From Bacillota bacterium (lineage in GTDB: Bacteria; Bacillota; SHA-98; UBA4971): a stretch of 64,000 nucleotides of DNA. The stretch is taken from NCBI GenBank assembly GCA_030024085.1, contig JASEJE010000012.1, positions 5,092-69,091 of the forward strand. The letters are read 5' to 3'. The notes beneath the pieces were generated by a model that worked only from the letters and a program-made list of their open reading frames with translations, was not told the origin of the DNA and made no database searches. Positions 16,458 to 60,757 of the stretch are shown here, in pieces (the first letter of the stretch is position 1; the number at the start of each line of letters is the position of its first letter). A program made the translations under genes and the position numbers.

Positions 16458-16830
16458 CTTCCATTCCCGAAGCGTGCATCTCCGAATAGCCGGCGCAAAG
16501 CGCCATATGTGGCCGCGCTTGCAGGCCATTCGCCATGAGATCGCTGTGCCATTGTATCTCGCGTCCGCGCGCGGGCGCGCATGCTCGGACGACCTCTCTG
16601 GCCGGGTGCATCCATCCGCCTTTCTGCACGACCTGGGGACTCACAGGGACCAGGGATACCCACGGCGCCCCGGAAGTCAGGTCGTCAGCTACGCACGAGG
16701 CTCGCGGGCAGGCCAGGCATTGCCCTGGCGCAGCGCCCCCAGGCTCTGCGTGCCCTGTCCGGGGAGATCCAGAGGCCGGGGCTGAGCTACGGGGAATGGC
16801 ATGGGGCAACCCGGGCCCCTGATACTGCCG

Positions 16831-17412
16831 TGTCACATGGGGATGTCCTGGTAGCGACGTCACCTGAGCTGACAGGTGACGGGCGTCACGGGTTCGTCCT
16901 CAAGCGTTCCCTGCGTCCTCATTGAGAGCCGTCCGCTGATGTACATCACCGGTCCGGGGCTTACCCGTTCCCTGCGTCACACATGCAAGGGGAAGGATGA
17001 CGTACATCACTCGTCAGGCTCCTCCCGTTCCGTGTGTCACGCATCGGGAGCCAATTGCTGACGTGCATCATCGTTGTCGCGTCACCTGTTCCCTGTGTCA
17101 CGGGTTCTCCATGAGTCGTTCCACACGTCACTCGTCGAAGCGGGACGGGTGAGGTAGGTCACGGGTTCCTCGCCAACCGTTCCCTGTGTCATCATTGAGA
17201 GCCATCCAGTGATGTACGTCACTGGTACGGGCCCTACCCGTTCCCTGTGTCACACATGCAAGGGAATCGATGACGTACGTCACTTGTCAGGCTGTACGCG
17301 TTCCGTACATCACGGGTTCCCCGGGAACTGTACGGTCAAGGGCCGCCATGGCGAGGAGTCGCCCTACAAAACGAGCCCGCCAGACTTGCCAGACCGGATG
17401 ACATTTCGTATC
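16831..17412. repeat. Phased box array, locus 1: 15 fourteen-bp boxes at ~30.5-bp spacing
   Basis: GTTCC(C/G)T(G/A)(C/T)GTCA(C/T) boxes start at 16906, 16967, 17027, 17088, 17118, 17179, 17240 and 17300. They interleave with nTGAYGTRCRTCAY boxes at 16936, 16997, 17058, 17148, 17209 and 17270, plus GTGACGGGCGTCAC at 16876. The locus is noncoding, between the ogt stop and the ctsR promoter. Confidence 0.9.
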
Positions 17413-17437
17413 CGACAGAGCATCATCAGGCGGGGGC

Positions 17438-18001
17438 TCACTGTGTCCGCGATGCGCAGGACACGCGCCGCTCATGGGCGAGGAGCCATTCCTTGAGCGC
17501 GAGGCCGCCGCCGAACCCCACGAGCGACCCGTCTTTTCCGACCACGCGGTGACATGGGATGATGATGGGCAGCGGGTTTGTCGCAAGCGCCTTTCCTACC
17601 GCCCTTGCCGCGAGGGGCGTGCCTATGGCTGCGGCAACCTCGCCATAAGATGCTGTCGCACCATAGGGAATCCGGCGGGTCTCTTCCAGGACTCGTCGGA
17701 CGAATGCGCTGACAGTAAGGTGAATCCGGCAATCGAAGGCGCTTCGAGTGCCCCTGAAGTATTCATCGAGCTGCGCGTGGAACTCCGCGTTCTCACCCGC
17801 GGCGGGGACGGGGATGGCTCGCGGGAACTTCAGCGCTAGCCACGCTAGGATTCCGTCCTCGCCGGGGAGGGCCACCTTCACAAGGCCTTCCGGTGTCGAG
17901 GCAAGCCACAACCTCCCTACAGGTGAGTCCAGCGTGGAATGGAAAACCCGGTCCACCCACCCACAGCCCTGCGATGCGATAGCCACAGTCAGAACCTCCA
18001 C
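17438..18001 (-). CDS. ogt: Methylated-DNA-protein-cysteine methyltransferase
   Basis: The PCHRVV active site followed by GGLALKEWLLAHE. Length is 187 aa. Confidence 0.93.
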   Translation of the reverse strand: MEVLTVAIASQGCGWVDRVFHSTLDSPVGRLWLASTPEGLVKVALPGEDGILAWLALKFPRAIPVPAAGENAEFHAQLDEYFRGTRSAFDCRIHLTVSAFVRRVLEETRRIPYGATASYGEVAAAIGTPLAARAVGKALATNPLPIIIPCHRVVGKDGSLVGFGGGLALKEWLLAHERRVSCASRTQ

Positions 18002-18313: not shown

Positions 18314-19102
18314 TCACTGGCTTGCAAGGGCTTCTATAGCTTCGATCGCGGTCATGCCCGTCCTGGCACAGGCCATGAGATTCTCGCGAATCCACTCCTG
18401 GTCGCGGGTGCGCACAACCTCCGCAAGAGTCGCGCCCAGCCGAGCCTGGGTGCTTTCGTCGAGCTCGTCGAAAGACGGCGCGCCGCTCGCATCGTGGTCG
18501 ACCGATCCGTCCGCTCCCTGCGCGAGGTCGGGGAAGTAACCCTGCTGCACAAGCTCGGCCATGAGGCGGAGCGTGGCCGCCAGCTTCTCCTTATCGACCC
18601 CTGCCCTCCTCGCCTGGTACGCCACGCGAGCAGCGAATTCCTCGCCCAGTCCAAGCGACCGCGCGTACCCCGCCATATCCGAACCGTCAGAGGAATCGTC
18701 ATGATCGTTATTGTTGCCATCGTCATTGTTATTGTCATTGTCATTGTTGTTGTCATTGTTAGAGCCGTCGCCGCCGCCGCCTGCGCCATCCCCCGGATCG
18801 TCCTGGCCGTCATCATGCCCGTTCCCGGCGCCGTTGCCATCATCGCGACCATCGTCATCATGGCCGCCGTCGTCATCGCCGTCCTGACCGCCGTTGCCCG
18901 CGCCGTCCCCGCCGCCCTGGTCGTCATCGTCGTCGCCAGGCCCGCCCGAGCCCGTGGAACCGCCGTCGGCCCTGAGCGCCGGGCTGCCCGTCCCCGGAGC
19001 CCCCACAGAGCCGCTCGCCCATGCAGGAAGCGCAAAGGCAAGCATGAGGACGAAGATCCCTACCATCACAACCTTCCACCATTTCCAGACCCGCCGCTTC
19101 AT
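18314..19102 (-). CDS. Secreted protein with an extreme D/G/N-rich low-complexity region
   Basis: Signal peptide MKRRVWKWWKVVMVGIFVLMLAFALPAWA, then ~110 aa of D/G/N repeats (NNDNNNDNDNNNDDGNNNDHDD), then a helical C-terminal domain with no recognisable family. Confidence 0.7.
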   Translation of the reverse strand: MKRRVWKWWKVVMVGIFVLMLAFALPAWASGSVGAPGTGSPALRADGGSTGSGGPGDDDDDQGGGDGAGNGGQDGDDDGGHDDDGRDDGNGAGNGHDDGQDDPGDGAGGGGDGSNNDNNNDNDNNNDDGNNNDHDDSSDGSDMAGYARSLGLGEEFAARVAYQARRAGVDKEKLAATLRLMAELVQQGYFPDLAQGADGSVDHDASGAPSFDELDESTQARLGATLAEVVRTRDQEWIRENLMACARTGMTAIEAIEALASQ

Positions 19103-19324: not shown

Positions 19325-20020
19325 TCAGGTCACGAGCCCGCGCAGGGCGTCCTCGTTCTGGATGACGAGGCGCCTGTCGTCCTCGACCGCGACGAGCCGA
19401 CTGTCGTGAAGCTCAGCGAGCACCCTTGTGACCGTCTCCCTTGTCACGCCGGCGTAGTTTGCAAGCTCCTGGTGGGTCAGCCTGACCTTGAGGCGCACGC
19501 CCTGGGCCGCCCGCTCCCCGTGAGCGCGCGCAAGCTGTAGCAGGGCCTCGATGATCCTGCCGCGCGCATCGCGAAACGCAAGGCGCTCCAGGTCCTCGTT
19601 GGTCCTGCGCAAGCGCTCGGCAAGGGTAAGTGCGATGTCGGTGGCGAGCCCCGGGGTGCTTTTCATCAGACCGAGGAATGGGTCGCGATCGATGATGAGC
19701 ACCTCGCAGTTGGAAAGGGCCTGGGCGGCGGCAGACCTGGGCGCTCCATCGAAGATGCTCATCTCGCCGAAAAAGTCCCCGGCCTCCAGGATGGCAAGGG
19801 TCTTCTCGCGCCCGTCCTCAGAGACCTTGTGGATCTTGACTGCACCTGCGGCGATTATGAGGAGAGAGCCACCGGGGTCGCCCTCGAAGAATATCGGGCT
19901 GCCGCGTTCATAGCGGCGCCTGCGCGCGATGCCCGAAAGCTTTGCAAGGCCTGCCTGGTCCAGGCCGCTGAAGAGAGGCACCGTCCCGAGGATTTCGAGG
20001 GGCTGAGAGCCTTGCAGCAA
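19325..20020 (-). CDS. crp: Crp/Fnr-family cNMP-binding transcription regulator (CRP-type recognition helix)
   Basis: cNMP-binding beta-roll (FFEGDPGGSLLIIAAGAVKI...GDFFGEMS) and an HTH LTHQELANYAGVTRETVTRVLAEL. The RETVTR matches E. coli CRP R180-E181-x3-R185. Confidence 0.9.
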   Translation of the reverse strand: MLQGSQPLEILGTVPLFSGLDQAGLAKLSGIARRRRYERGSPIFFEGDPGGSLLIIAAGAVKIHKVSEDGREKTLAILEAGDFFGEMSIFDGAPRSAAAQALSNCEVLIIDRDPFLGLMKSTPGLATDIALTLAERLRRTNEDLERLAFRDARGRIIEALLQLARAHGERAAQGVRLKVRLTHQELANYAGVTRETVTRVLAELHDSRLVAVEDDRRLVIQNEDALRGLVT

Positions 20021-44907: not shown

Positions 44908-45118
44908 TAAGTATGGCGCCATAAGTTTTCGCCACTTTTCTTGAGGGTGTTAGGGTTGCCGGTGCTTGCTAGGGCGGGGCGCCTGGAATTTGGCTGGCCC
45001 GTGTGCCAAATTCGAACGAGGCGCGCCGCGAGCGCGCCGTCCCCGGAGTGCAAGCACCGGCAACCCTGGAGGGCCCCTGCACGCCGAAAAGCAGCGCGGA
45101 TTTCTGGCGATGTACTTA
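44908..45118. repeat. Palindromic intergenic element, copy C (type 1, 211 bp)
   Basis: TAAGTATGGCGCCATAAG...GTTGCCGGTGCTTGC...GGAATTTGGC...GCCAAATTCG...GCAAGCACCGGCAAC...GGCGATGTACTTA. The arms pair into a ~100-bp imperfect hairpin. By eye it is roughly 85% identical to copy D. Confidence 0.85.
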
Positions 45119-45224
45119 GTCCCATGGAAGCGGGTGGAGGCGGGCCGCAACCGCGCCGCCCCTTGAGTGCAACACCGGCACCCCCCGGAAGAGCAGAAAC
45201 GTCCGAGGGAGGCTGGTTTCGGCC

Positions 45225-46145
45225 GTGGGAAGGTACATAGTGCGCAGGTTGCTCGCTGTGATCCCCGTTCTCGCTGGGGTGATCCTGGTCGTGTTCATCC
45301 TCAGCACCGTCGTGCCGGGAGATCCCGCCAGGATCCTCTCCGGTCAGAGGGGCGATCCCGAGACCATCGAGCGGATCCGGCGCGAGATGGGCCTCGACCG
45401 GCCGTGGTACATCCAGATGGCCAAGTTCTTCAGGGACGCCATCACATTCGACCTGGGACGGTCCTACCGGAATAACATGAAGGTCACCCAGGCATTGGCT
45501 GACAGGATCCCGGCCTCGGCGAAGCTGGCGGGAGCGGCTCTCCTGGTTGCCGTGCCTTTCGGGATGGTGCTCGGCATCACATCGGCGGTCAAGCAATACT
45601 CCATCTGGGACTACGCCAGCATGATCCTTGCCCTTCTCGGAGTCTCGGTGCCCGTGTTCTTCTTCGGGCTTCTCATGATCGTGGTGTTCTGCGTCAGACT
45701 CGGGTGGCTCCCTGGCACCGGCTATGGGGGCCTGCGTTATCTCATCCTTCCCGCCATAACCCTGGGTCTACGGCCCGCCGCCCTCATTGCCCGGATCACT
45801 CGATCGAGCATGCTGGAAGTCGTACGGCAGGACTACATAAGGACCGCCCGCTCGAAGGGGGTCCCCGAGGGGTCCGTGGTGTGGAGACACGCTCTGCGGA
45901 ACGCCATGATCCCCGTGATCACCGTCATAGGCGTGGACGTGCCCAGCCTGTTGAGCGGCGCCATGCTCACCGAGACCATTTTCTGCTGGCCAGGGATCGG
46001 CAGGCTTGCCGTCGAAGCCGTGATAAACCGGGACTTCCCGATCCAGCGAGGGGTTGTGCTCTTCATGGCCCTTGTTTTCCTCGGGGCAACTCTCATCGTT
46101 GACCTGTCCTACGGGTTCTTCGACCCGAGGGTACGTTACGAGTAG
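45225..46145 (+). CDS. Peptide ABC transporter permease (DppB-like)
   Basis: GRYIVRRLLAVIPVLAGVILVVFIL...PGDP N-terminus. GTG start after a GAGGGAGG RBS. Confidence 0.9.
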   Translation: MGRYIVRRLLAVIPVLAGVILVVFILSTVVPGDPARILSGQRGDPETIERIRREMGLDRPWYIQMAKFFRDAITFDLGRSYRNNMKVTQALADRIPASAKLAGAALLVAVPFGMVLGITSAVKQYSIWDYASMILALLGVSVPVFFFGLLMIVVFCVRLGWLPGTGYGGLRYLILPAITLGLRPAALIARITRSSMLEVVRQDYIRTARSKGVPEGSVVWRHALRNAMIPVITVIGVDVPSLLSGAMLTETIFCWPGIGRLAVEAVINRDFPIQRGVVLFMALVFLGATLIVDLSYGFFDPRVRYE

Positions 46146-46159
46146 GAGGACGGCACAAC

Positions 46160-47131
46160 ATGTCGGATACCGGAACCAGGATTCCAGAAGCCGGCGGCGC
46201 CACAGTGCCCCCCAGCGGGGCCTGGGCGACCGCTGCCCGCAAGGCAGGCAAGGCCGATAAGGAAGAGGTGGGCCGGAGCCTCTGGTACTACGCGTGGCTG
46301 CGTCTCAAGAGAAACAAATCGGCCATGTTCGGTCTCGCCCTTGTCCTACTGATAGTGTTGTCCGCGGTCTTCGCGCCCTGGGTAACCAGGTATGATCCCA
46401 TCGAACAGCTCATCTGGACGGAAGGCGCTTCAGCGCAGCTTGCTCCCCCGAGCGCAAAGCACTGGTTCGGGACTGACCTGTACGGCCGGGACGTGTTCTC
46501 CCGGGTGGTCTACGGCACGCGCGTGTCCCTCAGGCTGGCCCTCGCCGCGACGGTCATCTCGGTGGGCATCGGCACTGCTCTTGGGGCGCTCGCAGGCTAC
46601 TACGGAGGGTTCATCGACGATGTGGTATCGTGGCTCATAAGCGTGATCTTCGCCTTCCCATTCCTGCTGTTCGTCATAGCAATAGTCGCGTACCTCCCCC
46701 CCAGCGATACTCTGGTGTACACCGCGATCGGCGTGGTATCGTGGATAGGGGTGGCGAGGATCGTGAGGGGCCAGGTGATGGCCATCAAGGAGACGGAGTT
46801 CGTTCAGGCCGCTGTGGCTTCGGGTGCGAGCGATGCGAGGATCATCTTCAAGCACATATTGCCCAACGTAATCGCGCCTGTGATCGTGTCGGCCACCCTC
46901 GGAATGGGCGGGATCGTCATGCTCGAAGCCGGTTTGACCTTCCTGGGGTTCGGTACCCAGCCGCCCACCCCGAGCTGGGGATACATGATCTCGCGAGGCC
47001 AGGAGTACCTGCTCGCAGGCAAATGGTGGTGGTCAGTGTTCCCGGGCATCGCCATATGCGTGACCGTGCTCGGCTTCAACCTGCTGGGCGACGGCCTGCG
47101 CGATGCGCTGGACCCCAGGCTAAAGCAGTAG
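46160..47131 (+). CDS. Peptide ABC transporter permease (DppC-like)
   Basis: OppC-type N-terminal region (LRLKRNKSAMFGL) and a BPD-transporter domain. Confidence 0.9.
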   Translation: MSDTGTRIPEAGGATVPPSGAWATAARKAGKADKEEVGRSLWYYAWLRLKRNKSAMFGLALVLLIVLSAVFAPWVTRYDPIEQLIWTEGASAQLAPPSAKHWFGTDLYGRDVFSRVVYGTRVSLRLALAATVISVGIGTALGALAGYYGGFIDDVVSWLISVIFAFPFLLFVIAIVAYLPPSDTLVYTAIGVVSWIGVARIVRGQVMAIKETEFVQAAVASGASDARIIFKHILPNVIAPVIVSATLGMGGIVMLEAGLTFLGFGTQPPTPSWGYMISRGQEYLLAGKWWWSVFPGIAICVTVLGFNLLGDGLRDALDPRLKQ

Positions 47132-47238: not shown

Positions 47239-47447
47239 TAGGTATGGCGCCATAAGTTTGCGACACTTTTTCTGAGGGCGTTAGGGTTGCCGGTGCTTGC
47301 TAGGGCGGGGCGTCTAGAATTTGGCTAGCCTTAAGCGCCAAATTCGAACGCATCTCACCGCACGCGCCGTCCCCGGAGGGCAACACCGGCAACGCTGGAG
47401 AGGACTTGCGCGCTGAAAAGTAGCGCGAATTTGTGGCGATCTACTTA
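47239..47447. repeat. Palindromic intergenic element, copy D (type 1, 209 bp)
   Basis: TAGGTATGGCGCCATAAGTTTGCGAC...GTTGCCGGTGCTTGCTAGGGCGGGGCG...GGCAACACCGGCAAC...GGCGATCTACTTA. Its terminal TTA is the stop codon (TAA) of V-ATPase subunit D. Confidence 0.85.
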
Positions 47448-48077
47448 CGCCTGTTTCGCCCGCACGATGTCCTTCACCTTCATGAGCCGCGTGAGGTTTC
47501 CGCGTTCCATCTCGTCCAGCTTCATCGTGATGTACCGGGCCGTGCTCCGGAGGTTCGGTATGAGCACGTACTCGAGCGCGTTGACGCGGCGCCTCGTCTT
47601 CTCGATCTCGTCCGCCAGGAGCTCGATGGACTTCTCCACCTCGGCGAGTTCCGCCATCATGGGAAGCAGTTCGGCGAGGCCCGCCACGGCGTCATCGAGC
47701 GACGCGCTTGTGCCGTGGAACCCGTACGGGTAGATGTCACTGGCCTTCTCGCCGCGCCACGTGAACTCGGGCACCCTCACGTTCATGATGGTCGTGGTGG
47801 ACACGTCGACACCGCATGACACCTTGGGCGCCATGAAGGCCTCCTCCAGCGCCTCGCCTGACATGGCGGCCCTGGCCTGGAGGAAAGCGGGCAGCGCTCG
47901 GCCGAGGCCAGCCTCCACACGCCCGCGCAGGGCCTGCTCCTTCTTTATGAGGTCCAGGAACCTCTTCATGAGTTCGTCACGCTTGTCCTTGAGCAGTTTA
48001 TGCCCGCGCTCAGCCATTGCGAGGCGCTTCTTGAGCCTCAGAAGCTGCATGCGGGTAGGGCTCACTCTGACCTCCAT
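47445..48077 (-). CDS. atpD: V-type ATP synthase subunit D
   Basis: MEVRVSPTRMQLLRLKKRLAMAERGHKLLKDKRDEL is the typical V/A-type D subunit N-terminus. Confidence 0.93.
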   Translation of the reverse strand: MEVRVSPTRMQLLRLKKRLAMAERGHKLLKDKRDELMKRFLDLIKKEQALRGRVEAGLGRALPAFLQARAAMSGEALEEAFMAPKVSCGVDVSTTTIMNVRVPEFTWRGEKASDIYPYGFHGTSASLDDAVAGLAELLPMMAELAEVEKSIELLADEIEKTRRRVNALEYVLIPNLRSTARYITMKLDEMERGNLTRLMKVKDIVRAKQA

Positions 48078-51657: not shown

Positions 51658-52654
51658 GCAGCCTTTCTCTCACGCTCTCCCTGGACATGCCCGAGATCTT
51701 TCCCACAAGGACCAGCCTTACCAGCTTGAGCTCATGCAGCTTCGCGAACATGAACCCGATAAGGGGTTCGGGACCCAGGGGCACGTACCGAGCCTTGCGA
51801 ATACCCTCCCACATCGCGGCCTCCGAGAGCCTTTCCAGCTCAGCAAGGGGCTCCCCCGCGGCAAGCGCGGCTGCCGCCCGCCGTGCCAGGGCCTCATAGC
51901 CTGTGCCCGCAAGCCCCGCGGCCACCGCCTCCGGGGGTTGCTCATAACAGGCAATGAGCCGCAAGGGGCTGATCTTTCCCCCCGGCACCATGGCCTCCGC
52001 CGCCATGTCCCTCTCCCTTCCCATCCTCCTGGATCTGAAGAACACCGAGAGGTTGAGAAGGTCCACCTCCATCTCCACGAGGTCCACGAGATACTGGATG
52101 CCAAGGGACTTCGCTCCGGCCAGAAGGTAGCGATACATCTCCCGATCCACGGCGATGTCGATGGTCTCAGGCACGGCGCGGATGTCATGGGCGGCCCTCG
52201 CCGCACCGAGGGCTTTCGCGAGATGGGGAGGAAGGTCCCTGGTCTCGCCCTCGATGGCCCGCTCGATGACGGCGAGATCGACCGTCCCGTGCCTGGCCAC
52301 GGCCTTCTCCGGAGGAACCCGGTGCAGCCTGGCCTTGAGCATGACTTTCAGGTTGTGGAAGTCCCACCTGGCGGTGATGAACTCCATGAGCCGCGGGTCC
52401 GGTGTGGTTTCCCGGACCAGTCGCGCGAGCCTCTCCTCCTCGCCGGACACGATGTCATCGACGGTCGGACGCGCCTTTTCGGAGAGCTGCGCACCGGCGT
52501 AGCCTGCTTCTGCGAGCACCTTCAGCGCGCCCTCAACGTCGGGGGCATCGATCATGCGATCGATACGACCTCGGTCGAGAAGCCTCGTCTCGAGGACCCT
52601 CACGCGCCCGGTCGCATACGCATACTTCGATTCAAGCCCAAGCATCTGCCACAT
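51641..52654 (-). CDS. atpC: V-type ATP synthase subunit C (d-like)
   Basis: 337-aa helical protein in the conserved E-C-F order. Confidence 0.85.
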   Translation of the reverse strand: MWQMLGLESKYAYATGRVRVLETRLLDRGRIDRMIDAPDVEGALKVLAEAGYAGAQLSEKARPTVDDIVSGEEERLARLVRETTPDPRLMEFITARWDFHNLKVMLKARLHRVPPEKAVARHGTVDLAVIERAIEGETRDLPPHLAKALGAARAAHDIRAVPETIDIAVDREMYRYLLAGAKSLGIQYLVDLVEMEVDLLNLSVFFRSRRMGRERDMAAEAMVPGGKISPLRLIACYEQPPEAVAAGLAGTGYEALARRAAAALAAGEPLAELERLSEAAMWEGIRKARYVPLGPEPLIGFMFAKLHELKLVRLVLVGKISGMSRESVRERLRDAHV

Positions 52655-52685
52655 GTCACCTCCCGGGATGCCATGGTGTTCGGCA

Positions 52686-53285
52686 TCAGCCGAAGAGGAC
52701 CCTGGCTACATCCACCACGAGCGCCTCCCGCTCCCGCCCCAGGATCGCGTCGAACGTGCAGTTCACTTCCATGCTGCCTGTGCGTATCACGAAGCCACCG
52801 TCAAACTCACCTGGAGCGTCTGCGAGCCGAAGAGCCGCCTTGCGACCCTGCCGTGCCAGCTCCGCGTTCACCTCGGCGACGACCTCAGGACCCACGGTTT
52901 CAAGGTCACGCGGACACACGACGACCTGCTCGTCGCCGCTCTCCACCGCCTTCAGCATCTCCCGCTTCAAATAGGCTCTGTACCGGGCGGAATCGAGCGA
53001 AGCCAGGCGCTTCCGGGCTTCCTGGAAGACCTCATCGATGAGGGCAGCCTTCGTCGCCAGCACTTGCTTGCGAGCGTCGAGCTCCGCGAGGGTGAGGGTG
53101 CGCCGCCGATCCTCGTCAGCCCTCTCCTTCCCCCGCGCAAGCTCCTCATCGCGCTCACGCGCCGCCTCAGCTCGCGCCTCGGCCAGTATCGCCTCGGCCT
53201 CAGCCGTTGCTGCCCCAAGAATCTCCTTGGCCCTGGCTCTTCCATCCTCCAGGATCTTCTCCTGCATCTTCTCGAGAGCAGACAT
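52686..53285 (-). CDS. atpE: V-type ATP synthase subunit E
   Basis: 199 aa. A long charged N-terminal helix (ILEDGRARAKEILGAATAEAEAILAEARAEAARERDE) and a globular C-terminus. Confidence 0.88.
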   Translation of the reverse strand: MSALEKMQEKILEDGRARAKEILGAATAEAEAILAEARAEAARERDEELARGKERADEDRRRTLTLAELDARKQVLATKAALIDEVFQEARKRLASLDSARYRAYLKREMLKAVESGDEQVVVCPRDLETVGPEVVAEVNAELARQGRKAALRLADAPGEFDGGFVIRTGSMEVNCTFDAILGREREALVVDVARVLFG

Positions 53286-53780
53286 TCACGCCACTCCTTT
53301 AAGAGGCAGGCCGAACATGATGAGAAGCAGCGAGGCGAGGAACGCCAGCACTGCGTACGTCTCCACCATAGCTGCAAAAGTGACGGGCTTGCCGAGCTCC
53401 TCTGGCCTCTTGGCCACAACCCCGACGCCGGCAGCGGCGACCTTACCTTGGTGGATGGCGGAGAGCCACCCCACTATGGCAATAGGGAGCACCGCCATGA
53501 TGACGAGGAGCCCCTCAAATGTGGTCAGCCTGAGCACGTTCCCGCTGAACACGCCGAGCTTCATCATGAGGACGAACCCCGTGAGCAGCCCATATATCCC
53601 CTGCGTCCCCGGGATGACCTGCAGCAGCAATATCTGTCCGAACTTGTCAGGGTCTTCCGTCACAACCCCCGACCCTGCGGAGCCGACCAGACCGACCCCC
53701 ACTGCCGACCCGACACCCGGTAGCGCTACCGCCAGGGCTATGCCAAGGAACCCGAGAATCATACCAACAGTGACGCCCAT
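53286..53780 (-). CDS. atpK: V-type ATP synthase proteolipid subunit K (duplicated, 4 TM)
   Basis: 164 aa. LLLQVIPGTQGIYG, SAIHQGKVAAAG and FAAMVETYAVL are near-identical to the motifs of Enterococcus hirae NtpK as I remember it. Confidence 0.93.
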   Translation of the reverse strand: MGVTVGMILGFLGIALAVALPGVGSAVGVGLVGSAGSGVVTEDPDKFGQILLLQVIPGTQGIYGLLTGFVLMMKLGVFSGNVLRLTTFEGLLVIMAVLPIAIVGWLSAIHQGKVAAAGVGVVAKRPEELGKPVTFAAMVETYAVLAFLASLLLIMFGLPLKGVA

Positions 53781-53786
53781 CTTGTG

Positions 53787-55796
53787 TTAAGCCTCCCCTT
53801 CCTCCAGGACTTCGATGTACCTCGTTCTCTTTCTGAACGGCAGGAACCTCCGACCGCCGCCCTCGAAGAACTTGCTGAAGAACTCCACGTACTGGAGCCT
53901 GCTCGAGTGCACGTAAGACCCGACAACGTTTATGGCCAGGTTGAACCCATGCCCAACGGCGAGAAGCAGGGTCATCGGTATCCACCCCACGAACGGGATG
54001 CCGAGCATCCGAAGGGCCATGTCATCGATGACGACCGCGATCACGGAGGACGCAAGCCCTAGGGCAAGCAGCCTCGAGTAGGACAACACATCGCTGAGAT
54101 AGCCCGTGACGCCGTAGAGACTCAGAAGCCCGGACCCAAGGCGCTTGATGGGGTTCCTGTGCGCGCGGCCTTGCGTCAGGATGAGGCCTGCCGCGCCGGC
54201 GATGGCAAGCCACTGGCCAGCTGCGCCAAGCGAGGCGTTCTTCAGACCGGAGCCGCCCAGAATCAGAAGGAGGCCCGTGAGGAACACGTACCAGAACCCC
54301 TGATCGAAGATCCCGTCGAGCACCCTGCTCTGCCTGACATTGGCATAGAACTTGATTCCAAGACCGACATAGATCTGTATGACCCCAAGGCCGAACGACA
54401 CGCCCAGCATGAGCATGGGGTTATCCATCGGGTTGAACCACAGCGGCGGGATCTTGACCAGATTGCCCAGCCAGCCGCCGGTCAGCGCTCCCACTATCGC
54501 CGACGACACCCCGCACATGGCGAGGAGCGTGAAGAGCTTCTTCGCAAGGCCCGCCATCTTCACCTTTTTCAGCAGCAACAGCGACAGGGCCGTAAGCCCA
54601 ATCCCGTACCCGACGTCGCCGAGGGCCATGCCGAAGAATATGAAGAAGAACGGGGCCAGAGCGAACGTTGGGTCTACCGACCCGGTTCGCGGCATGCTGT
54701 AAATCTCCGTCACCGCCTCGAACGGAGTGACCGGGCCGGGGTTATCGAGCGCAACCGGTGGGACCTCGTCTGCGAGCGGATCACGGGACTCGATGTGAAT
54801 GAGATCGAACCTCGACGTGAGCGCCTCCTGCAAGGCCGGCACGTCGGACGCTCTCACCCAACCCTCGACCGCGAACGCCGTACGGGTCGCGGGGCAATCA
54901 CGCTCGACAAGTCGCCTCTCGCGCTCCATGGACAGGCTATCATACAGGGACAGCACCTTGACGCGCTCCGCAAGGAGCGGCTTGACCTCCTCCCGAACAC
55001 GCGCCAGTTCAACCCCGATTCGCGACAGTTCGTCGGAACACTTGCGGATCTCCTCGGCAGGAGTTCCCTCGAGCGCCGGCAACCCAGATGGCGATGTCCC
55101 GCATCCGGCCAGGATGTCGAGGACTTGCTGCTTGTCTGGGGCAAGACACATGATCACGGCAGCCACCGTGCGCTTGCCCTCCGGGCCGTGCTCCACGTGC
55201 ACTGCGTAGCATGCGTCTTCGAGCTCCTTTACGGCCTCATCGAAAGCCTTCACGGGAATCTCGCATGGAATGAGGCAGAACGCATGCCCCTCTGCAATGC
55301 TCGCGAGTGGAACATCCAGCCACTCCCATGGCTGAAGCTGCTTCAAAGTGGTGTTGACACGGCTCTCTTCGTTGCGGATCCTCGTGATCTCCTCATCCAG
55401 CTTGCGGCACTTTTCATAGATGCTGTGGCCCTCATCGCACAGGCCCTCGTACGCCTCGAACGACGATTCATCGAGGGGGATCTTGCCTCCGGCGAATTGC
55501 TGGATGAAGCCTTTCTTGACCTTCTCGAACCCGTCGAAGAACTCTATGCAGTATTTGAGCTCCGCGAGGCGCTGGTCGATCTCCTCGAAGTCGGCGACCT
55601 GCTCTGACGGAGGGGCGCCACCGCGTTGTGCGCGCCCATCGTGGAGGCCCGCGCCTTCGGAGGAATCCCCGCCGTCGAGTCCGTAGTCGCCTTTTGCGAT
55701 CTCGAGAACCCCGAGTTCCTGCAGGGTCTCAGTGATACGTTCAGCCTCAGGCGTGGGTGCAACCAGCAGGACCTTCTTCATCCTAGCGATTGCCAC
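53787..55796 (-). CDS. atpI: V-type ATP synthase subunit I (a-like stator/proton channel)
   Basis: 669 aa. A cytosolic N-terminal half plus a multi-TM C-terminal half with a conserved Arg region (SYSRLLALGLAS). Confidence 0.93.
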   Translation of the reverse strand: MAIARMKKVLLVAPTPEAERITETLQELGVLEIAKGDYGLDGGDSSEGAGLHDGRAQRGGAPPSEQVADFEEIDQRLAELKYCIEFFDGFEKVKKGFIQQFAGGKIPLDESSFEAYEGLCDEGHSIYEKCRKLDEEITRIRNEESRVNTTLKQLQPWEWLDVPLASIAEGHAFCLIPCEIPVKAFDEAVKELEDACYAVHVEHGPEGKRTVAAVIMCLAPDKQQVLDILAGCGTSPSGLPALEGTPAEEIRKCSDELSRIGVELARVREEVKPLLAERVKVLSLYDSLSMERERRLVERDCPATRTAFAVEGWVRASDVPALQEALTSRFDLIHIESRDPLADEVPPVALDNPGPVTPFEAVTEIYSMPRTGSVDPTFALAPFFFIFFGMALGDVGYGIGLTALSLLLLKKVKMAGLAKKLFTLLAMCGVSSAIVGALTGGWLGNLVKIPPLWFNPMDNPMLMLGVSFGLGVIQIYVGLGIKFYANVRQSRVLDGIFDQGFWYVFLTGLLLILGGSGLKNASLGAAGQWLAIAGAAGLILTQGRAHRNPIKRLGSGLLSLYGVTGYLSDVLSYSRLLALGLASSVIAVVIDDMALRMLGIPFVGWIPMTLLLAVGHGFNLAINVVGSYVHSSRLQYVEFFSKFFEGGGRRFLPFRKRTRYIEVLEEGEA

Positions 55797-56109
55797 TTGC
55801 CGTCACGATCCTCTCCACCACAAGATCCACCGCCTCAGCCATCCGGGCCCGCGCCTGGATCTCCAGGTCGCGGCACCCGGCCGCCGCCCTCTCCGCGATC
55901 CTGGCTGCGGCAGCCCGAGCCTCGGCCTCCTGGGCCTTTGCGCTCGCTGTAGCCTCGGCTGCGGCCTCCGCCGCCGCGTTTTCCACGATCATCTTCGCGG
56001 AGGCGCGGGCATCCTGGACGATAGACCTGGCACGCGCCTCGGCCTCCCTGACAACCTCGTCAGCACCCGCCTCGGCGTCCTGCAACCGCTTCAGGGCCTC
56101 ATAAGCCAA
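55783..56109 (-). CDS. V-type ATP synthase small peripheral-stalk subunit (G/H-like)
   Basis: Ala/Glu-rich coiled-coil EALKRLQDAEAGADEVVREAEARARSIV, first gene of the operon. I chose the TTG start at 56109 after a GGGAGGTGGGAGG RBS; the ORF is open to 56181. Confidence 0.75.
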   Translation of the reverse strand: MAYEALKRLQDAEAGADEVVREAEARARSIVQDARASAKMIVENAAAEAAAEATASAKAQEAEARAAAARIAERAAAGCRDLEIQARARMAEAVDLVVERIVTASGNR

Positions 56110-56134
56110 GCCTCCCACCTCCCGACCGTCACCT

Positions 56135-56163
56135 ATTCTACTACAACGCGTACAAAGCAACAA
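56135..56163 (-). promoter_or_regulatory. Candidate sigma-A promoter of the V-ATPase operon (TTGTTG, 17-bp spacer, TAGAAT)
   Basis: The minus strand has TTGTTG (56163-56158), a 17-bp spacer, and TAGAAT (56140-56135), ~25 nt upstream of the TTG start. Confidence 0.35.
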
Positions 56164-56711
56164 CCCCTGCACGCAGGCCAAAACCCTGGTTTCACTCCCA
56201 CCAGGGCTTCAGCGGGCCCCCAAAGGACGGGCCAACGCTCCTACTTTTTCGCCATGAGAGCGGGAGTTCCTTCCTTGGACGGGGAGGCAGCAAACGGAAA
56301 GCTGGAAAACGAGACGAAATTGCGCTCCACCCGGGAACCTTGGAACGCGACGCGCGTTATGAGTTAGTGAAAGCCGGATGAAAAGGGAACGACCAGAAAG
56401 GACCACCAGGTATCAAGGAGTGTTCGAGGCGCGCGCCCTTTACCATATACCGTGTGGGAACCGACAGGGCAACAACACACCCTCCCGGCAGCAACAACAG
56501 CGACAACCGACCCACGCCAATAGACCACCCAAAACCCGGCGGAGGCCGCCGAGGTCCCCATCCATGGGGTGCCTTCGGCGGCTCCCGCTGTACCACGAAC
56601 GCTCCCGCGAACGTGCTCGCCTGCGCATGGAGTCATGGGCCGCCGCGCCTCATCTCGCCGGCGGCCCGTCCCAAAGTCGGGGCATTTCTGCACCCCCACT
56701 TAGTACTGCTC

Positions 56712-57302
56712 TGTCGCATATGGACCTCCTCGTAGTGCCGTCACTTGAGCTGATGGGCGACACACGTCACGGGTCCCTCCTCAACTGTTCCCTACGTCAT
56801 CGTTGAGAACCATCGACTGATGTACATCACTGGTCCGGGCTTTACCCGTTCTCTACGCCACACATGCAAGGGGAAGGATGATGTACGTCACTCGTCAGGC
56901 TCTTTCCGTTCCATACGTCACGCATCGGGAGCCGATCGGTGACGTACATCATCGTTGCCGCCTCACCCGTTCCCTGCGTCACGGGTTCTCCATGAATCGT
57001 TCCATACGTCACTCGTCAAAGCGGGACGGGTGACGTACATCACGGGTTCCTCCTGAGCCGTTCCCTACGTCATCATTGAGAGCCATCCAGTGATGTACAT
57101 CACTGGTCGGGACCTTACCTGTTCCCTGTGTCACGCATGCAAGAGGAAAGATGACGTACGTCACTCGTCAGGCTCTTTCCGTTCCGTACATCACGGGTTT
57201 GCCAGGAACTACACGACTGCACAGTTAGGACCCACCGGGGCCGGGAGTCGCCCTGCCAGACGAGCCCGCCACGGCCACCAAACCGGATGGCATTTCGTAT
57301 CT
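56712..57302. repeat. Phased box array, locus 2 (direct copy of locus 1, offset exactly 39,881 bp across the array)
   Basis: GTTCC-type boxes at 56787, 56848, 56908, 56969, 56999, 57060, 57121 and 57181. Palindromic boxes at 56817, 56878, 56939, 57029, 57090 and 57151. A perfect 20-bp palindrome CCAGTGATGTACATCACTGG lies at 57087-57106. Confidence 0.9.
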
Positions 57303-57314
57303 AGCAGCGCAGTA

Positions 57315-58298
57315 TCAGTGCCCTGATATGTGCCTCTCCGCCTCGACGGCCGCTATGGCGCCGTCGGCGACTGCGGTAACGACCTGTCGCACCGCCTTCG
57401 CACGGACATCTCCCGCCGCAAAGAGACCGGGCGTTCGGGTCATCATGCGGTCGTCCGTCACGATGTAGCCGCGGGGATCCATGTCTGCGAGACCCGCCAC
57501 GAATCCAGTGTCAGGTCGGCTGCCGACGGCGACGAAGACGCCGTCTGCGTCCAGGCGTCGCGTCTCGCCTGTCCTGGTGTCCTTGAGGATGACCCCTTCA
57601 ACTTTCCGCGCGCCGAGGATCTCCTCCACCACGGAGTTCCACGCAAAGTCGATCTTCGGGTTCCTGAAGGCGTCTTCCTGCACCACCTTCGTCGCGCGCA
57701 ACTGCTCCCGCCTGTGGACCACCGTCACATTCGATGCAAACCTCGTCAAAAAGAGCGCCTCGACTATCGCCGAATCTCCGCCGCCGATGACCAGGACGCG
57801 CCCATCGCGGAAGAACGCGCCGTCACAAGTGGCGCAGTATGACACACCGGCTCCGCGCAGCCTGTCCTCGCCTGGAACCCCAAGACGCACCGGTTCCGTC
57901 CCTGTGGCGACGATCACTGCCGCTGCGTGGAGGTCCCCTTCGCTCGAACTTACGACCAGCCCTCCGTCGCCAGTCGCAACAGCGTGGACCTCTGCGTAGT
58001 GGAACTCAGCGCCGAACCGGCGGGCCTGCTGCTCCATCCTCTGCATGAGGTCCGGCCCGGCAATCCCCTCGGGAAACCCGGGGTAGTTCTCGATGAGATG
58101 TGTGGTGGAGGCCTGTCCACCCGCAGCGCCCCGCTCGAGGACGACCGTGGCAAGCCTTGCTCGCCCTGCGTAGAGCGCGGCCGCAAGCCCGGCAGGGCCG
58201 GCCCCTATCACCGCAACTTCAGTTCTCACCGGTATCCTTGTCGCCAATGCCGTCTCACTCCTTCGTCGGCAGGTCGGTGCAGCATCGTACCACTCCAC
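57315..58298 (-). CDS. trxB: Thioredoxin-disulfide reductase
   Basis: VAVIGAGPAGLAAALYA FAD motif, redox-active CATCDG, and a GGGDSA NADPH motif. Confidence 0.95.
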   Translation of the reverse strand: MEWYDAAPTCRRRSETALATRIPVRTEVAVIGAGPAGLAAALYAGRARLATVVLERGAAGGQASTTHLIENYPGFPEGIAGPDLMQRMEQQARRFGAEFHYAEVHAVATGDGGLVVSSSEGDLHAAAVIVATGTEPVRLGVPGEDRLRGAGVSYCATCDGAFFRDGRVLVIGGGDSAIVEALFLTRFASNVTVVHRREQLRATKVVQEDAFRNPKIDFAWNSVVEEILGARKVEGVILKDTRTGETRRLDADGVFVAVGSRPDTGFVAGLADMDPRGYIVTDDRMMTRTPGLFAAGDVRAKAVRQVVTAVADGAIAAVEAERHISGH

Positions 58299-58305
58299 TA
58301 CGGCG

Positions 58306-59553
58306 TTACCTCGACGAAGACCTGCGCCCCGCCCTTCGAATGATGCCTTTCAAGTTCTCCAGGAATGCACGGGGAAGAGACCTGCGGGGCATCCCGGTCG
58401 CCGCCACGAGGTCCACCGATGCCATCTCGTCCTTATCGAACAGGACCACCAGTCTCCCAAGGCTTTCGCCGCGCCGGACCGGCGCCTGTGGAACCCCGTC
58501 GATGAGTATTCTCTCCTCGATGAGATGGGCCAAATCATTACGCACTACAACGCGAAGATCATCCCCTGCCGCAAGGGAGATCTCGCGATCCATGCCCCCC
58601 TCAACGCGCGTTCTCGTAACCACCTGGCCCCGGGACGCAAAGCTCATTACCTTGTGGTGGCTAAACCCGTAGTCCAGCAGCTTCGCCGAGTCAGCCCACC
58701 TCGCGCCGGAATCGAGGACCACCGAGATGAAGTGCACCCCGCCCCGCGTGGCCGACGCAACCAGGCAGTACCCTGCGGCAGCGGTGGTGCCGGTCTTGAC
58801 CCCGTCGGCCCCCTCGAACGACCACAGCAGGGCGTTGGTGTTCGCCAGCTTCCGGCGCTCGAGCGCCTCGCCCTGCGTGAGCTCTATCTCTGCTTCGCGC
58901 GTGCTCACGATGTCGGCGAACAGCGGATACTGCAAGCCGTACCGTGCCATGAGCGCAAGGTCGAAGGCGGTGGAGTAGTGGTTCGGCTCGGTCAGTCCAT
59001 GAGGGTTCGCGAACCTCGTGTGCAGGGCCCCTATCTTCTGGGCCTTGATGTTCATCATCCGCACGAAGTTCGGCACTGATCCGGCGATATGCTCCGCGAT
59101 CGCGATGCAGCCGTCATTGCCCGACCTGAGCATCGTACCTCGGACGAGATCGTCCAGACGCAGCCTCTGGCCCTTGCGAAGCCACAGCGATGAGCCGGGC
59201 ACCCCTGCCGCATTGCCGCTCACGACCACCTCCGAATCCATGTCGCCGAGCTCGATGGCGAGGATCGCCGTCATGATCTTCGTGGTGCTGGCGGGGTGCA
59301 TGCGCACGTGCTCGTTCTTTCCATAAAGCACCGTCCCCGTGGTGCCCTCGATGAGGACGGCTGACGCTGCGGTCACCCACGGCCCCTCGGTGTAATAGGG
59401 CGCGTACACGACCTCCGGGTACCCGTGCGTCCTGGTGTAAAGCCGCGCCGTGGCGGCAGGCAGGATGTAGACGCTGCCCACGGACACAGCGCTGGCCAGA
59501 ACCACGGTAAACCCCACGAGCCAGTAGGCCACGATCCGCCTTGGCACGAACAC
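58306..59553 (-). CDS. D-alanyl-D-alanine carboxypeptidase (S11 family, PBP5/DacB-like)
   Basis: SxxK (ASTTK), SxN (SGND) and KTG (KTGTT) motifs, with an N-terminal TM or signal anchor. Confidence 0.9.
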   Translation of the reverse strand: MFVPRRIVAYWLVGFTVVLASAVSVGSVYILPAATARLYTRTHGYPEVVYAPYYTEGPWVTAASAVLIEGTTGTVLYGKNEHVRMHPASTTKIMTAILAIELGDMDSEVVVSGNAAGVPGSSLWLRKGQRLRLDDLVRGTMLRSGNDGCIAIAEHIAGSVPNFVRMMNIKAQKIGALHTRFANPHGLTEPNHYSTAFDLALMARYGLQYPLFADIVSTREAEIELTQGEALERRKLANTNALLWSFEGADGVKTGTTAAAGYCLVASATRGGVHFISVVLDSGARWADSAKLLDYGFSHHKVMSFASRGQVVTRTRVEGGMDREISLAAGDDLRVVVRNDLAHLIEERILIDGVPQAPVRRGESLGRLVVLFDKDEMASVDLVAATGMPRRSLPRAFLENLKGIIRRAGRRSSSR

Positions 59554-59737
59554 CTCTTGCCACCCGCTTCGGGCAGTCCTGGGTCGGCAACCTGCCCTGC
59601 ACTATCCCTATGCAAGCGGAAGGCGACGGATACCTGCTGGATCGGGCGGCGCAAACCGCATAACTCTACTCCACGTTGTCGCGTATCTGCCACCAGGGCG
59701 GGTTGCGCAGCACCTGCGGAGCGCGGGCATAGCCTCC

Positions 59738-60757
59738 TCACTCCGCGGGCGAGACCCCCAGGCCAGGCGCGTCGGCGAGCACAAGCTCGCCCCCATCCCG
59801 CACGCAAACGCCCTTCCAGGGATCGTGCGACAACAAGAGGTTTCCATCGAGGTCAGCCCAGTCGACAAGCCCGGCTATCTGGGCCGCAGCCGCGATGCTG
59901 ATAGACGTCTCTACCATGCACCCGAGCATGATCTTGAGGCCGCAGGCCCGCGCGGCCCTTATCATGCGAAGAGCGCCGGTGATGCCCCCGCACTTCATGA
60001 GCTTGATGTTGATGCCGTCCACGACCCCTGCCAGCCGGGGCACGTCCTCCCAGGTCACGGCGCTCTCATCTGCGACCACCGGCACGGCCGCCCGCTCCCG
60101 AACGAACTTCAGCCCATCCAGGTCCCAGGGAGGCACCGGCTGCTCCAGAAGTTCGACCCCGAGCGGCGCGATCTGCGCTGCGAGCGTGACAGCCTCTTTC
60201 GCCGTCCAGGCTGCGTTGGCGTCAACCCGGATCGTGGCGCCGGTACATCGCCTGATCGCCTTCACGATCTCGAGGTCGTCCGCGCTCCCGAGCTTCACCT
60301 TGAGCACGGAGAACCTCTTCGCCGCCTCGGCAGCGCGCTGCGCCATGGCGCCCGGATCGTCTATTCCGATCGTAAACGAGGTCCTCGGAAGCGCAAGACC
60401 GGAGAGGCCCAGCATACGGTGAACGGGCAGGCCGGAGAGCTTCCCGGCAAGGTCCCACATGGCCATGTCGACGGCCGCCTTGGCCGCCGGGTTGAGCCTG
60501 ATGGAGCGGTTCATCCTGTCGAACACCGCTTCTATCGCGAAGGGATCATCGCCAAGACACTCGGCCAGCCGGGGCACCGTCGCCATCACGTGTTCCGCGG
60601 ATTCCCCGTAGAACGAAGACGGTGCAGCCGCCCCCATCCCGGCTACACCATCATGGCTCAACTCCACCACCACGTTTCGAGCGATGGTCTGTGTTCCGCG
60701 GGAGATCGTAAAAGGCGTCGCGAGCGGCAACTCCACTATACGTGCAGATACTTCCAA
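59738..60757 (-). CDS. Dipeptide epimerase (L-Ala-D/L-Glu epimerase-like, enolase superfamily)
   Basis: The N-terminal capping domain is LPLATPFTISRGT. The barrel carries KVKLG, DANAAW, LEQP and ADES metal/acid-base motifs. Confidence 0.85.
   Translation of the reverse strand: MEVSARIVELPLATPFTISRGTQTIARNVVVELSHDGVAGMGAAAPSSFYGESAEHVMATVPRLAECLGDDPFAIEAVFDRMNRSIRLNPAAKAAVDMAMWDLAGKLSGLPVHRMLGLSGLALPRTSFTIGIDDPGAMAQRAAEAAKRFSVLKVKLGSADDLEIVKAIRRCTGATIRVDANAAWTAKEAVTLAAQIAPLGVELLEQPVPPWDLDGLKFVRERAAVPVVADESAVTWEDVPRLAGVVDGINIKLMKCGGITGALRMIRAARACGLKIMLGCMVETSISIAAAAQIAGLVDWADLDGNLLLSHDPWKGVCVRDGGELVLADAPGLGVSPAE

Follow-up and report, generated by a model that had tools for sequence, protein, structure and literature searches.

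Two phased box arrays in a Bacillota contig are probably insertions of a TA-targeting miniature transposable element with a BOX-like architecture

Introduction

Bacterial MITEs (transposable elements of the miniature inverted-repeat type) are usually 100–300 bp long and simple. The BOX element of Streptococcus pneumoniae is MITE-like, has the modular composition boxA-(boxB)n-boxC, and is moved by an enzyme that remains uncertain (PMC3049150), and the RUP element of the same species is a MITE that is mobilised by IS630, inserts at TA, and has inverted repeats matching those of IS630-Spn1 (PMC2229807, PMC3049150). Here we describe a ~610-bp non-coding element, hereafter designated family A, which occurs twice in a 64,000-nucleotide stretch of a Bacillota genome (contig JASEJE010000012.1 of assembly GCA_030024085.1, positions 5,092 to 69,091; hereafter the window). 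A previous reading of the window, made from the letters alone (the sequence-only reading), had noticed the two copies as arrays of short boxes lying in perfect register 39,881 bp apart. With a probability of about 0.78, we consider both arrays to be insertions of a mobile, TA-inserting MITE, for which BOX is the closest described architecture.

Arrays of palindromic units are also found in other settings. Plasmid centromeres consist of tandem units that hold a palindromic site, as in sopC with its twelve 43-bp repeats, each containing a palindrome. In eukaryotes, satellite-forming MITEs and foldback elements with internal tandem repeats have a minisatellite interior that expands and contracts by whole units. 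Finally, REP/BIME sequences are regularly spaced palindromic extragenic units, which are reported to bind host proteins in E. coli (PMC2817692).

Results

The two arrays lie within a larger homologous element

The two window loci were found to be homologous by blastn (E = 1e-149 between 16820-17437 and 56701-57318), in agreement with the pairwise alignment. The sequence-only reading had taken the box array itself as the homologous unit; the array is indeed homologous, but the shared unit is larger, extending over 56703-57315 at locus 2 and 16822-17426 at locus 1 with the offset of 39,881 bp. The features of the two copies are as follows.

Locus 2
56703-57315, plus strand: family-A element, 613 bp, comprising a head, the box array, and a tail; matched over model positions 2-612 with an nhmmer score of 683
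56701-56702, no strand: left copy of the target-site duplication, TA; junction ...cccccactTA-GTACTGC
56703-56725, plus strand: left terminal inverted repeat (TIR), GTACTGCTCTGTCGCATATGGAC, conserved in every complete copy; its sequence is complementary to that of the right end
56757-57197, plus strand: box array, 15 boxes, P-box alternating with G-box at 30/31-bp spacing
56752-56922, plus strand: first copy of the 273-bp higher-order repeat (repeat family D1, spacing 273, 84% identity)
57025-57195, plus strand: second copy of the 273-bp higher-order repeat (repeat family D1)
57087-57106, no strand: perfect 20-bp palindrome, CCAGTGATGTACATCACTGG, a P-box with extended arms
57198-57290, plus strand: unique G+C-rich tail, without boxes and prone to insertions and deletions (indels)
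57291-57315, plus strand: right TIR, CATTTCGTATCTAGCAGCGCAGTAT
57316-57317, no strand: right copy of the target-site duplication, now CA, that is, TA with one transition
57315-57317, minus strand: trxB stop codon TGA, made up of the duplicated dinucleotide and the last element base (open reading frame 57315-58298, Pfam Pyr_redox_2)

Locus 1
16822-17426, plus strand: family-A element, 605 bp; nhmmer score 664; flanks TG (16820-16821) and CA (17427-17428)
16822-16844, plus strand: left TIR, ATACTGCCGTGTCACATGGGGAT
16876-17316, plus strand: box array, in register with 56757-57197
17402-17426, plus strand: right TIR

The element has a G+C content of 61% and begins with a 54-bp head, followed by the array and a 118-bp G+C-rich tail without boxes. 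Within the array, GTTCC boxes (G-box, GTTCCnnnnGTCAC, half-palindromic in the form GTTCC...GTCAC) alternate with palindromic boxes TGAYGTACRTCA (P-box, TGAYGTACRTCAC, equivalently GTGA-N6-TCAC, with no loop) in the canonical order P G P G P G P G G P G P G P G. All boxes run in one direction, the G-boxes and GTCAC ends pointing the same way. The boxes are more conserved than the spacers (majority frequency 0.92 versus 0.86), with invariant positions TGA...TCAC and GTTCC...GTCAC, and one box is slightly degenerate in each window locus. The perfect 20-bp palindrome reported previously at 57087-57106 was confirmed by direct reading, and its arm extension is not conserved in other copies.

Each of the eight GTTCC-type boxes of locus 2 (56787, 56848, 56908, 56969, 56999, 57060, 57121, and 57181) lies 39,881 bp from its locus-1 counterpart, and the 441-bp arrays align with zero gaps at 85.5% identity. 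These values bear out the register, the lack of indels, and the divergence of ~15% that had been judged by eye. The head is 74% identical and the tail 72% with one 8-bp indel; overall identity is only ~80%, and the flanks are unrelated. A 273-bp super-unit is present in both loci, as had been proposed (171-nt copies at a spacing of 273 bp, with identities of 84% and 81%), but the basic period is 30/31 bp and not 61 bp. The 61- and 273-bp periods were not reported by Tandem Repeats Finder because the units are too divergent, and were found instead by a repeat search and regular expressions. The two copies match in register because both retain the canonical 15-box architecture common to most members of the family. 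The two loci do not form a special pair but belong to a dispersed family of ~29 copies.

Several other identities of the array were considered and rejected. A coding function is ruled out by the absence of spanning open reading frames (none of >=60 aa spans either window element, and stop codons occur in every frame of both strands) together with the TGA present in every P-box on both strands. A CRISPR array is ruled out because the would-be spacers are themselves repeated, at 273 bp, and conserved from one dispersed copy to another. Decay of methylated cytosine as the source of the Y/R variation in the boxes was also discarded, since CpG transition rates are not elevated.

Family A is dispersed in related genomes

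A pattern of paired boxes, with an expected chance count of <1 in 596 Gb, matched 19 loci in species-representative genomes, namely 17 in Bacillota MAG107 (JBLNDE01) and 2 in Firmicutes UBA6811 (DKEX01), and, in metagenomes, 16 contigs of a single JGI sample and one of an ENA sediment sample (17 in all). An nhmmer profile built from eight full-length copies recovered ~29 copies, and the family ranges over three related uncultured Bacillota genomes and two metagenomes. Sixteen copies, 14 of them non-redundant, have the canonical length and align end to end at 74–89% identity, including locus 2, which aligns with the 15 others. Besides these many dispersed copies, presence/absence polymorphism was observed, the element being absent at orthologous sites in the loci designated L020-L028 (loci outside the window are hereafter given by L numbers).

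Copies are found in both orientations relative to neighbouring genes, a qualitative result based on heuristic gene calls from G+C content at third codon positions, which mis-called mcsA/mcsB. With respect to replication, no significant bias was observed: read in the orientation of the element, the GC skew of the flanks was negative for 14 copies out of 22. No family-A match was present in the plasmid and phage collections. The searchable literature made no mention of UBA6811 and, apart from BOX, described no bacterial MITE with tandem repeats in its interior.

Two kinds of gene were observed near family-A copies. LacI-family regulator genes with ~30% mutual identity lie 0.3–1.1 kb from copies at three independent loci (L008:4116-5222; L015:1633-2952, with its orthologue L016:2591-3835; and L018:3703-4836); this proximity is probably due to chance in a sugar-utilising genome. 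Paralogous SPFH/Band_7 genes (L003:3057-4196 and L014:5279-6256, 69–74% identical) each adjoin a family-A copy, and this pair may be a segmental duplication that took in the element.

Insertion occurred at TA with duplication of the target

In each copy, the ends together with the target read TA-GTACTGCTCTGTCAC ... GACAGAGCAGTAY-TA. Complete copies start with TA-RTACTGCTCTGTCAcATAtGGA and finish with TTTCGTATCTGACAGAGCAGTAY-TA, forming an imperfect TIR of ~23–25 bp. Comparison of the left end, GTACTGCTCTGTCAcATAtGGA, with the reverse complement of the right end, GTACTGCTCTGTCAgATAcGAA, revealed this repeat in all complete copies (short forms of the end: TACTGCTCTGTCA and, with the target dinucleotide, TA-GTACTGCTCTGTCA). 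The flank of complete copies is TA or its one-transition variant, with TA on both sides in L009, L016, L029, L039, and L043, and the targets are mostly C-TA-G or C-TA-A. At L043:2120-2140, two family-A elements stand head to tail with one TA in common (...ACAAAGCAGTAC-TA-GTACTGCTCC...).

The insertion at locus 2 could be examined against an empty site in L023/L025, whose TrxB is 86% identical. The empty site reads ...GGGGCAC-TA-AGTGAGAGTGC..., and its window counterpart ...AGGGCAC-TG-[613 bp]-TA-AGTGGGGGTGC... Indeed, in-silico removal of 56703-57317 restores ...GGGCAC-TA-AGTG..., colinear with L023 through the junction. The comparison of filled and empty sites thus demonstrates the TA duplication at locus 2. 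The sequence AGTGAG... at the empty site is the end of a ~125-bp MITE of another family (family B), itself flanked by TA...TA, of which a remnant borders the window copy:

56641-56700, minus strand: family-B remnant with the end TA-AGTGGGGGTGCAGAAATGCC, beside which family A is inserted; a complete ~125-bp TA-flanked copy occupies the same site in L023/L025

Family A thus inserted at the TA that separates the trxB stop codon from the older family-B element, and this TA was duplicated. The ancestral trxB site is reconstructed as CAC-TAG-ACG, which contains CTAG, and relatives read CAC-TAA at the position of the stop codon.

The flanking genes, assigned by Pfam, are ogt, trxB, ctsR-mcsA-mcsB-clpC (mcsA-like), and the V-ATPase I subunit. 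The sequence-only reading had pointed out the start of both loci near a minus-strand stop codon and their shared genomic placement. The adjacency itself is real, the element end overlapping the trxB stop and lying 11 nt from the ogt stop. As a sign of function it does not hold: both copies adjoin stop codons because of insertion into a TA within TAG/TAA/CTAG, and the two are among dozens of dispersed insertions with TIRs and TA duplication.

Two further differences from relatives were observed around locus 1. The window ogt has a 6-bp insertion (AGTGAG; window 17430-17445 versus L021:6540-6570), which brings a TGA stop forward to a point immediately in front of the element, so that the product has 187 aa versus 188–190 aa in relatives. 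In addition, ~77 bp at 16745-16821, between the left end of locus 1 and the ancestral post-ogt sequence, are missing from L021; this segment contains GGGTTGCC-like motifs and may be the remnant of another MITE.

The boxes are strictly phased

Among 374 recognised boxes in 29 copies, 322 of the 345 successive intervals were exactly 30 bp (234) or 31 bp (88), and nearly all the others were sums of 30/31 bp where a degenerate box had been missed. At 30.33 bp, the period approximates three turns of the helix. The box number is ~12–24 per copy (recognised boxes, 11–21), and the array spans 303, 424 (canonical), 484, 514, or 606 bp, the differences of 61, 91, 121, or 182 bp corresponding to 2, 3, 4, or 6 whole units. 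In the 14 non-redundant canonical copies, the 441-bp array contained 664 minor-allele differences and 1 indel event, as compared with 193 differences and 6 indel events in the 118-bp tail, so that, relative to substitutions, the array has ~20 times fewer small indels. The spacing noted in the two window copies is therefore conserved throughout the family.

The arrays are not conserved at orthologous intergenic sites

The orthologous intergenic regions were compared for the presence of the arrays. L010 (MAG107), the ortholog of window 51828-60140 with 96% identity, has the same trxB insertion, in which 317 bp of the array (window 56800-57116, ~10 boxes) have been deleted out of phase and 5 bp inserted in the tail. 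The rest of this element is 92.8% identical to the window copy, versus 95.9% for neighbouring non-element intergenic DNA and 95.6–98.4% for coding sequence. The ogt-ctsR spacers of L020, L021, and L022, in conserved synteny, have no family-A copy; those of L021/L022 are 320–370 bp long with the ctsR promoter and CtsR operator intact, and that of L020 is 1.8 kb long with other repeats, its flanks being 94–96% identical to the window. Given this absence in relatives and the loss of boxes in L010, the arrays are therefore not conserved features of these intergenic regions, and the trxB site, the one comparable orthologous site, shows no sign of purifying selection on the array by the host.

The proposal that preserved spacing reflects selection on phasing thus holds in part: the spacing is kept, but the trxB ortholog gives no sign of host selection. 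The dearth of small indels at ~20% divergence points to a real phasing constraint, most likely arising from the element itself. Since inserted copies seem unconstrained, the constraint would act on propagation, in active lineages before insertion.

These observations bear directly on an alternative that we regard as unlikely, in which the arrays are cis-regulatory or architectural elements of the host, namely phased operators selected at each locus to control ctsR-clpC, V-ATPase, ogt, and trxB. The strict 30/31-bp phasing and the higher conservation of boxes than of spacers would suit such a role, as might the form of the P-box, TGA-N6-TCA, which we take to be that of a CRP/FNR-type palindrome and which recalls such sites by analogy; a Crp-family regulator is encoded at 19325-20020. 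Nevertheless, there are dozens of copies in unrelated intergenic contexts and in both orientations, relatives without the element at ogt-ctsR have kept the ctsR promoter and CtsR box, and the trxB ortholog has lost ~10 boxes out of phase in an element that evolves faster than the adjoining intergenic DNA. Moreover, apart from those in the two elements, P-box-like sites are no more frequent in the 64 kb than expected by chance, and the Crp gene is conserved in relatives lacking the element. Nothing in this analysis shows that the element regulates neighbouring genes.

An RNA family or another type of palindrome cluster is unlikely to account for the element

A structured non-coding RNA or a family of 3'-untranslated regions co-transcribed with the upstream gene, in which the palindromic boxes would form a row of hairpins, was judged decidedly improbable. 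Both window copies are directly downstream of same-strand genes, and their predicted folding is more stable than that of shuffled sequence (z = -4.2 and -4.0). The fold z-score is, however, equal on both strands, as DNA palindromes would give; the RNAalifold covariation term is unfavourable (+1.42), with many pairs broken; and two variable P-box positions that are complementary to each other show no significant covariation (Fisher p = 0.08), C-A mismatches making up one third. Rfam gave no match at the gathering score and only chance-level ones at E<=10, and the occurrence of the family in both orientations, by heuristic gene calls, also speaks against this reading. The RNA hypothesis was rejected on the strand-equal z-scores, the lack of RNAalifold covariation, and the P-box halves that do not covary.

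Even less probable is a REP/BIME-type cluster spread by RAYT, an IS200/IS605-like tyrosine transposase, in place of a DDE transposase. As in REP/BIME, the units are palindromic, regularly spaced, and extragenic, and they stand at gene 3' ends, as is described for BIMEs (PMC2817692). Unlike BIMEs, which alternate in REP orientation and are linked to RAYT, family A has boxes uniform in direction; its P-box is loopless and its G-boxes are not palindromes. It has a unique head and tail, is bounded by TIRs, and shows a TA duplication confirmed at the empty site, and no RAYT-like gene recurs among the loci.

Very little credence can be given to a centromere- or iteron-like array of plasmid or phage origin, which would recruit a partition or replication protein and have been dispersed secondarily. 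Tandem units that each hold a palindromic site recall plasmid centromeres by analogy, and a second, unrelated phased palindrome array (TGGTCG-N6-GACCA, mostly in 32-bp steps) stands in the ogt-ctsR spacer of L020. Against this origin are the lack of similarity to any record in the plasmid and phage collections, the dozens of chromosomal copies per genome, and the absence of partition or replication genes recurring beside them.

Finally, a local segmental duplication or assembly artefact, which the like orientation of the two copies and their distance of 39.9 kb within a single contig might suggest, is refuted by an overall identity of only ~80% and by two independent metagenome contigs, L031 and L036, that reproduce the two window loci at 99.7–99.8% (locus 1 being 99.7% identical to L036), so that neither locus is an artefact. 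The flanks are also unrelated, and many copies occur elsewhere.

Other repeats in the same genomes

The genomes that contain family A are also rich in other MITE families flanked by TA. Family B is ~125–200 bp long, with the ends TA-AGTGAGGGTGCAG...CTGCACCCTCACT-TA and an internal GGGTTGCCGGTG/CACCGGCAACCC hairpin, and is found at the following sites.

Window: 56641-56700, 8080, 33781, and 3181
L012: 7241-7438
L014: 7517-7713
L023: 4943-5066 (TIRs at 4943 and 5066)

Several other family-A copies also abut family-B ends, and the frequency of this abutment suggests that a TA beside a resident MITE is a preferred target.

Family D (~210 bp, TA-flanked, with the end TA-AGTATGGCGCCATAAG) has direct copies at window 44908-45120 and 47240-47450, which bracket two oligopeptide-permease genes (BPD_transp_1/OppC_N, 45225-47131), and another copy sits inside the family-A copy of L013. 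At L020:7200-7840, in the ogt-ctsR spacer of the metagenome-assembled genome (MAG) JBLNCJ01, orthologous to window ~16590-17440, there is an unrelated array of at least 12 palindromic boxes, TGGTCG-N5-7-GACCA. Its steps are mostly 32 bp, the others being 41, 52, 64, 73, and 84 bp, lengths near multiples of the helical repeat, and no copy of this type of array was present in the window or the other loci. Tandem repeats were also observed within open reading frames: at 18714-18759 the hexamer TTGTCA occurs 7.7 times, and at 56030-56094, in a small gene upstream of V-ATPase subunit I, a unit of 33 bp occurs twice.

Discussion

Of the described systems, the pneumococcal BOX element is the closest to family A in architecture. 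Both are composite non-coding dispersed intergenic repeats in which unique end modules surround tandem internal units; the number of internal units varies between loci (in BOX, between loci and strains), and both have TIRs, a frequent position beside other repeats, and no firmly identified mobilising transposase. There is, on the other hand, no evident sequence relationship, and the composition of family A (G+C-rich, 61%) and its host make homology unlikely. The boxB module is 45 bp long. Whereas BOX has this single module, usually in 0 to a few units, family A has a 30/31-bp unit, two alternating box types, and a 273-bp higher order, with 15 units in the canonical form. Moreover, the TA duplication is demonstrated in family A, and BOX is predicted to fold as RNA, whereas family A is without covariation. 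Family A resembles RUP in its TIRs, TA insertion, stop codons in all frames, and preference for sites next to or into other mobile elements. RUP is, however, 107 bp long without an internal array, as compared with ~610 bp with an array, and has a known partner insertion sequence, IS630-Spn1, whereas that of family A was not found in the window or the 45 loci. Eukaryotic satellite-forming MITEs likewise combine non-autonomy with an internal tandem array, in another domain of life and with no relationship implied. Family A is thus distinct by its length, its two alternating box types, and its exceptionally strict phasing.

Presumably, each locus represents one insertion of a non-autonomous DNA transposon. 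The array probably arose by nested duplication of 30, then 61, and then 273 bp, and unequal recombination would shift the unit number by whole units, automatically keeping the phase. TA-containing stop codons and TA beside older MITEs are probably the preferred targets, and mobilisation would be effected in trans by a DDE transposase of the IS630/Tc1-mariner type. The boxes may be bound by a dimeric DNA-binding protein that serves the element, as phased sites placed along one face of the DNA at intervals of three helical turns; the element's own transposase appears to be the most likely candidate for this protein.

Several points weigh against the interpretation of family A as a mobile MITE of this type, or against parts of it. 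With paralogous copies only 74–89% identical, nothing points to recent transposition. A scan of the 45 loci and the window for element ends, long-range inverted repeats, and open reading frames common to several loci yielded neither an autonomous element nor a transposase whose inverted repeats match; among the open reading frames, only LacI-family regulators, Band_7, and ABC-transporter genes recurred. The one ground for naming IS630/Tc1-mariner is the TA duplication, by analogy with RUP and IS630-Spn1. For binding of the boxes by the transposase, the one hint is a weak resemblance of the G-box and downstream bases (CTGTGTCACACATG) to the inner left repeat (CTCTGTCACATATG), at ~12 of 14 positions by eye. 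At locus 1, where the flanks are TG/CA, the pre-insertion sequence could not be cleanly reconstructed from L020, L021, and L022, which are too rearranged. Finally, the deficit of small indels could be partly mutational, as the tail has slippage-prone simple repeats.

A further possibility, which we put forward tentatively and consider rather doubtful, is that the transposon spreads a nucleoprotein scaffold, in which 12–24 operator-like palindromes of the TGA-N6-TCA type, exactly three helical turns apart, load a dimeric DNA-binding protein as a filament or wrap. Candidates for this protein would be the transposase of the element itself, for which the array might serve as a sponge or synapsis platform, and a CRP/FNR-like or partition-type protein of the host. 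If this were true, every insertion would establish, between operons, a local domain bound by protein, and the strict phase at 74–89% identity, together with the unrelated phased array of L020, would reflect a strategy, general in this lineage, of making binding-site arrays mobile.

With family A taken as a TA-inserting MITE, the two arrays in perfect register resolve into ordinary transposon biology, and their adjacency to stop codons receives a mechanistic account. The architecture remains of interest, being a long array of alternating boxes whose phasing has survived ~20% divergence with almost no small indels. The lineage is rich in TA-targeting MITEs, which matters for the assembly and annotation of its MAGs, as contig L031, which ends inside the array, illustrates. 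If the boxes are protein-binding sites, family A would be a natural case of a mobile element that distributes multi-site binding platforms around the chromosome.

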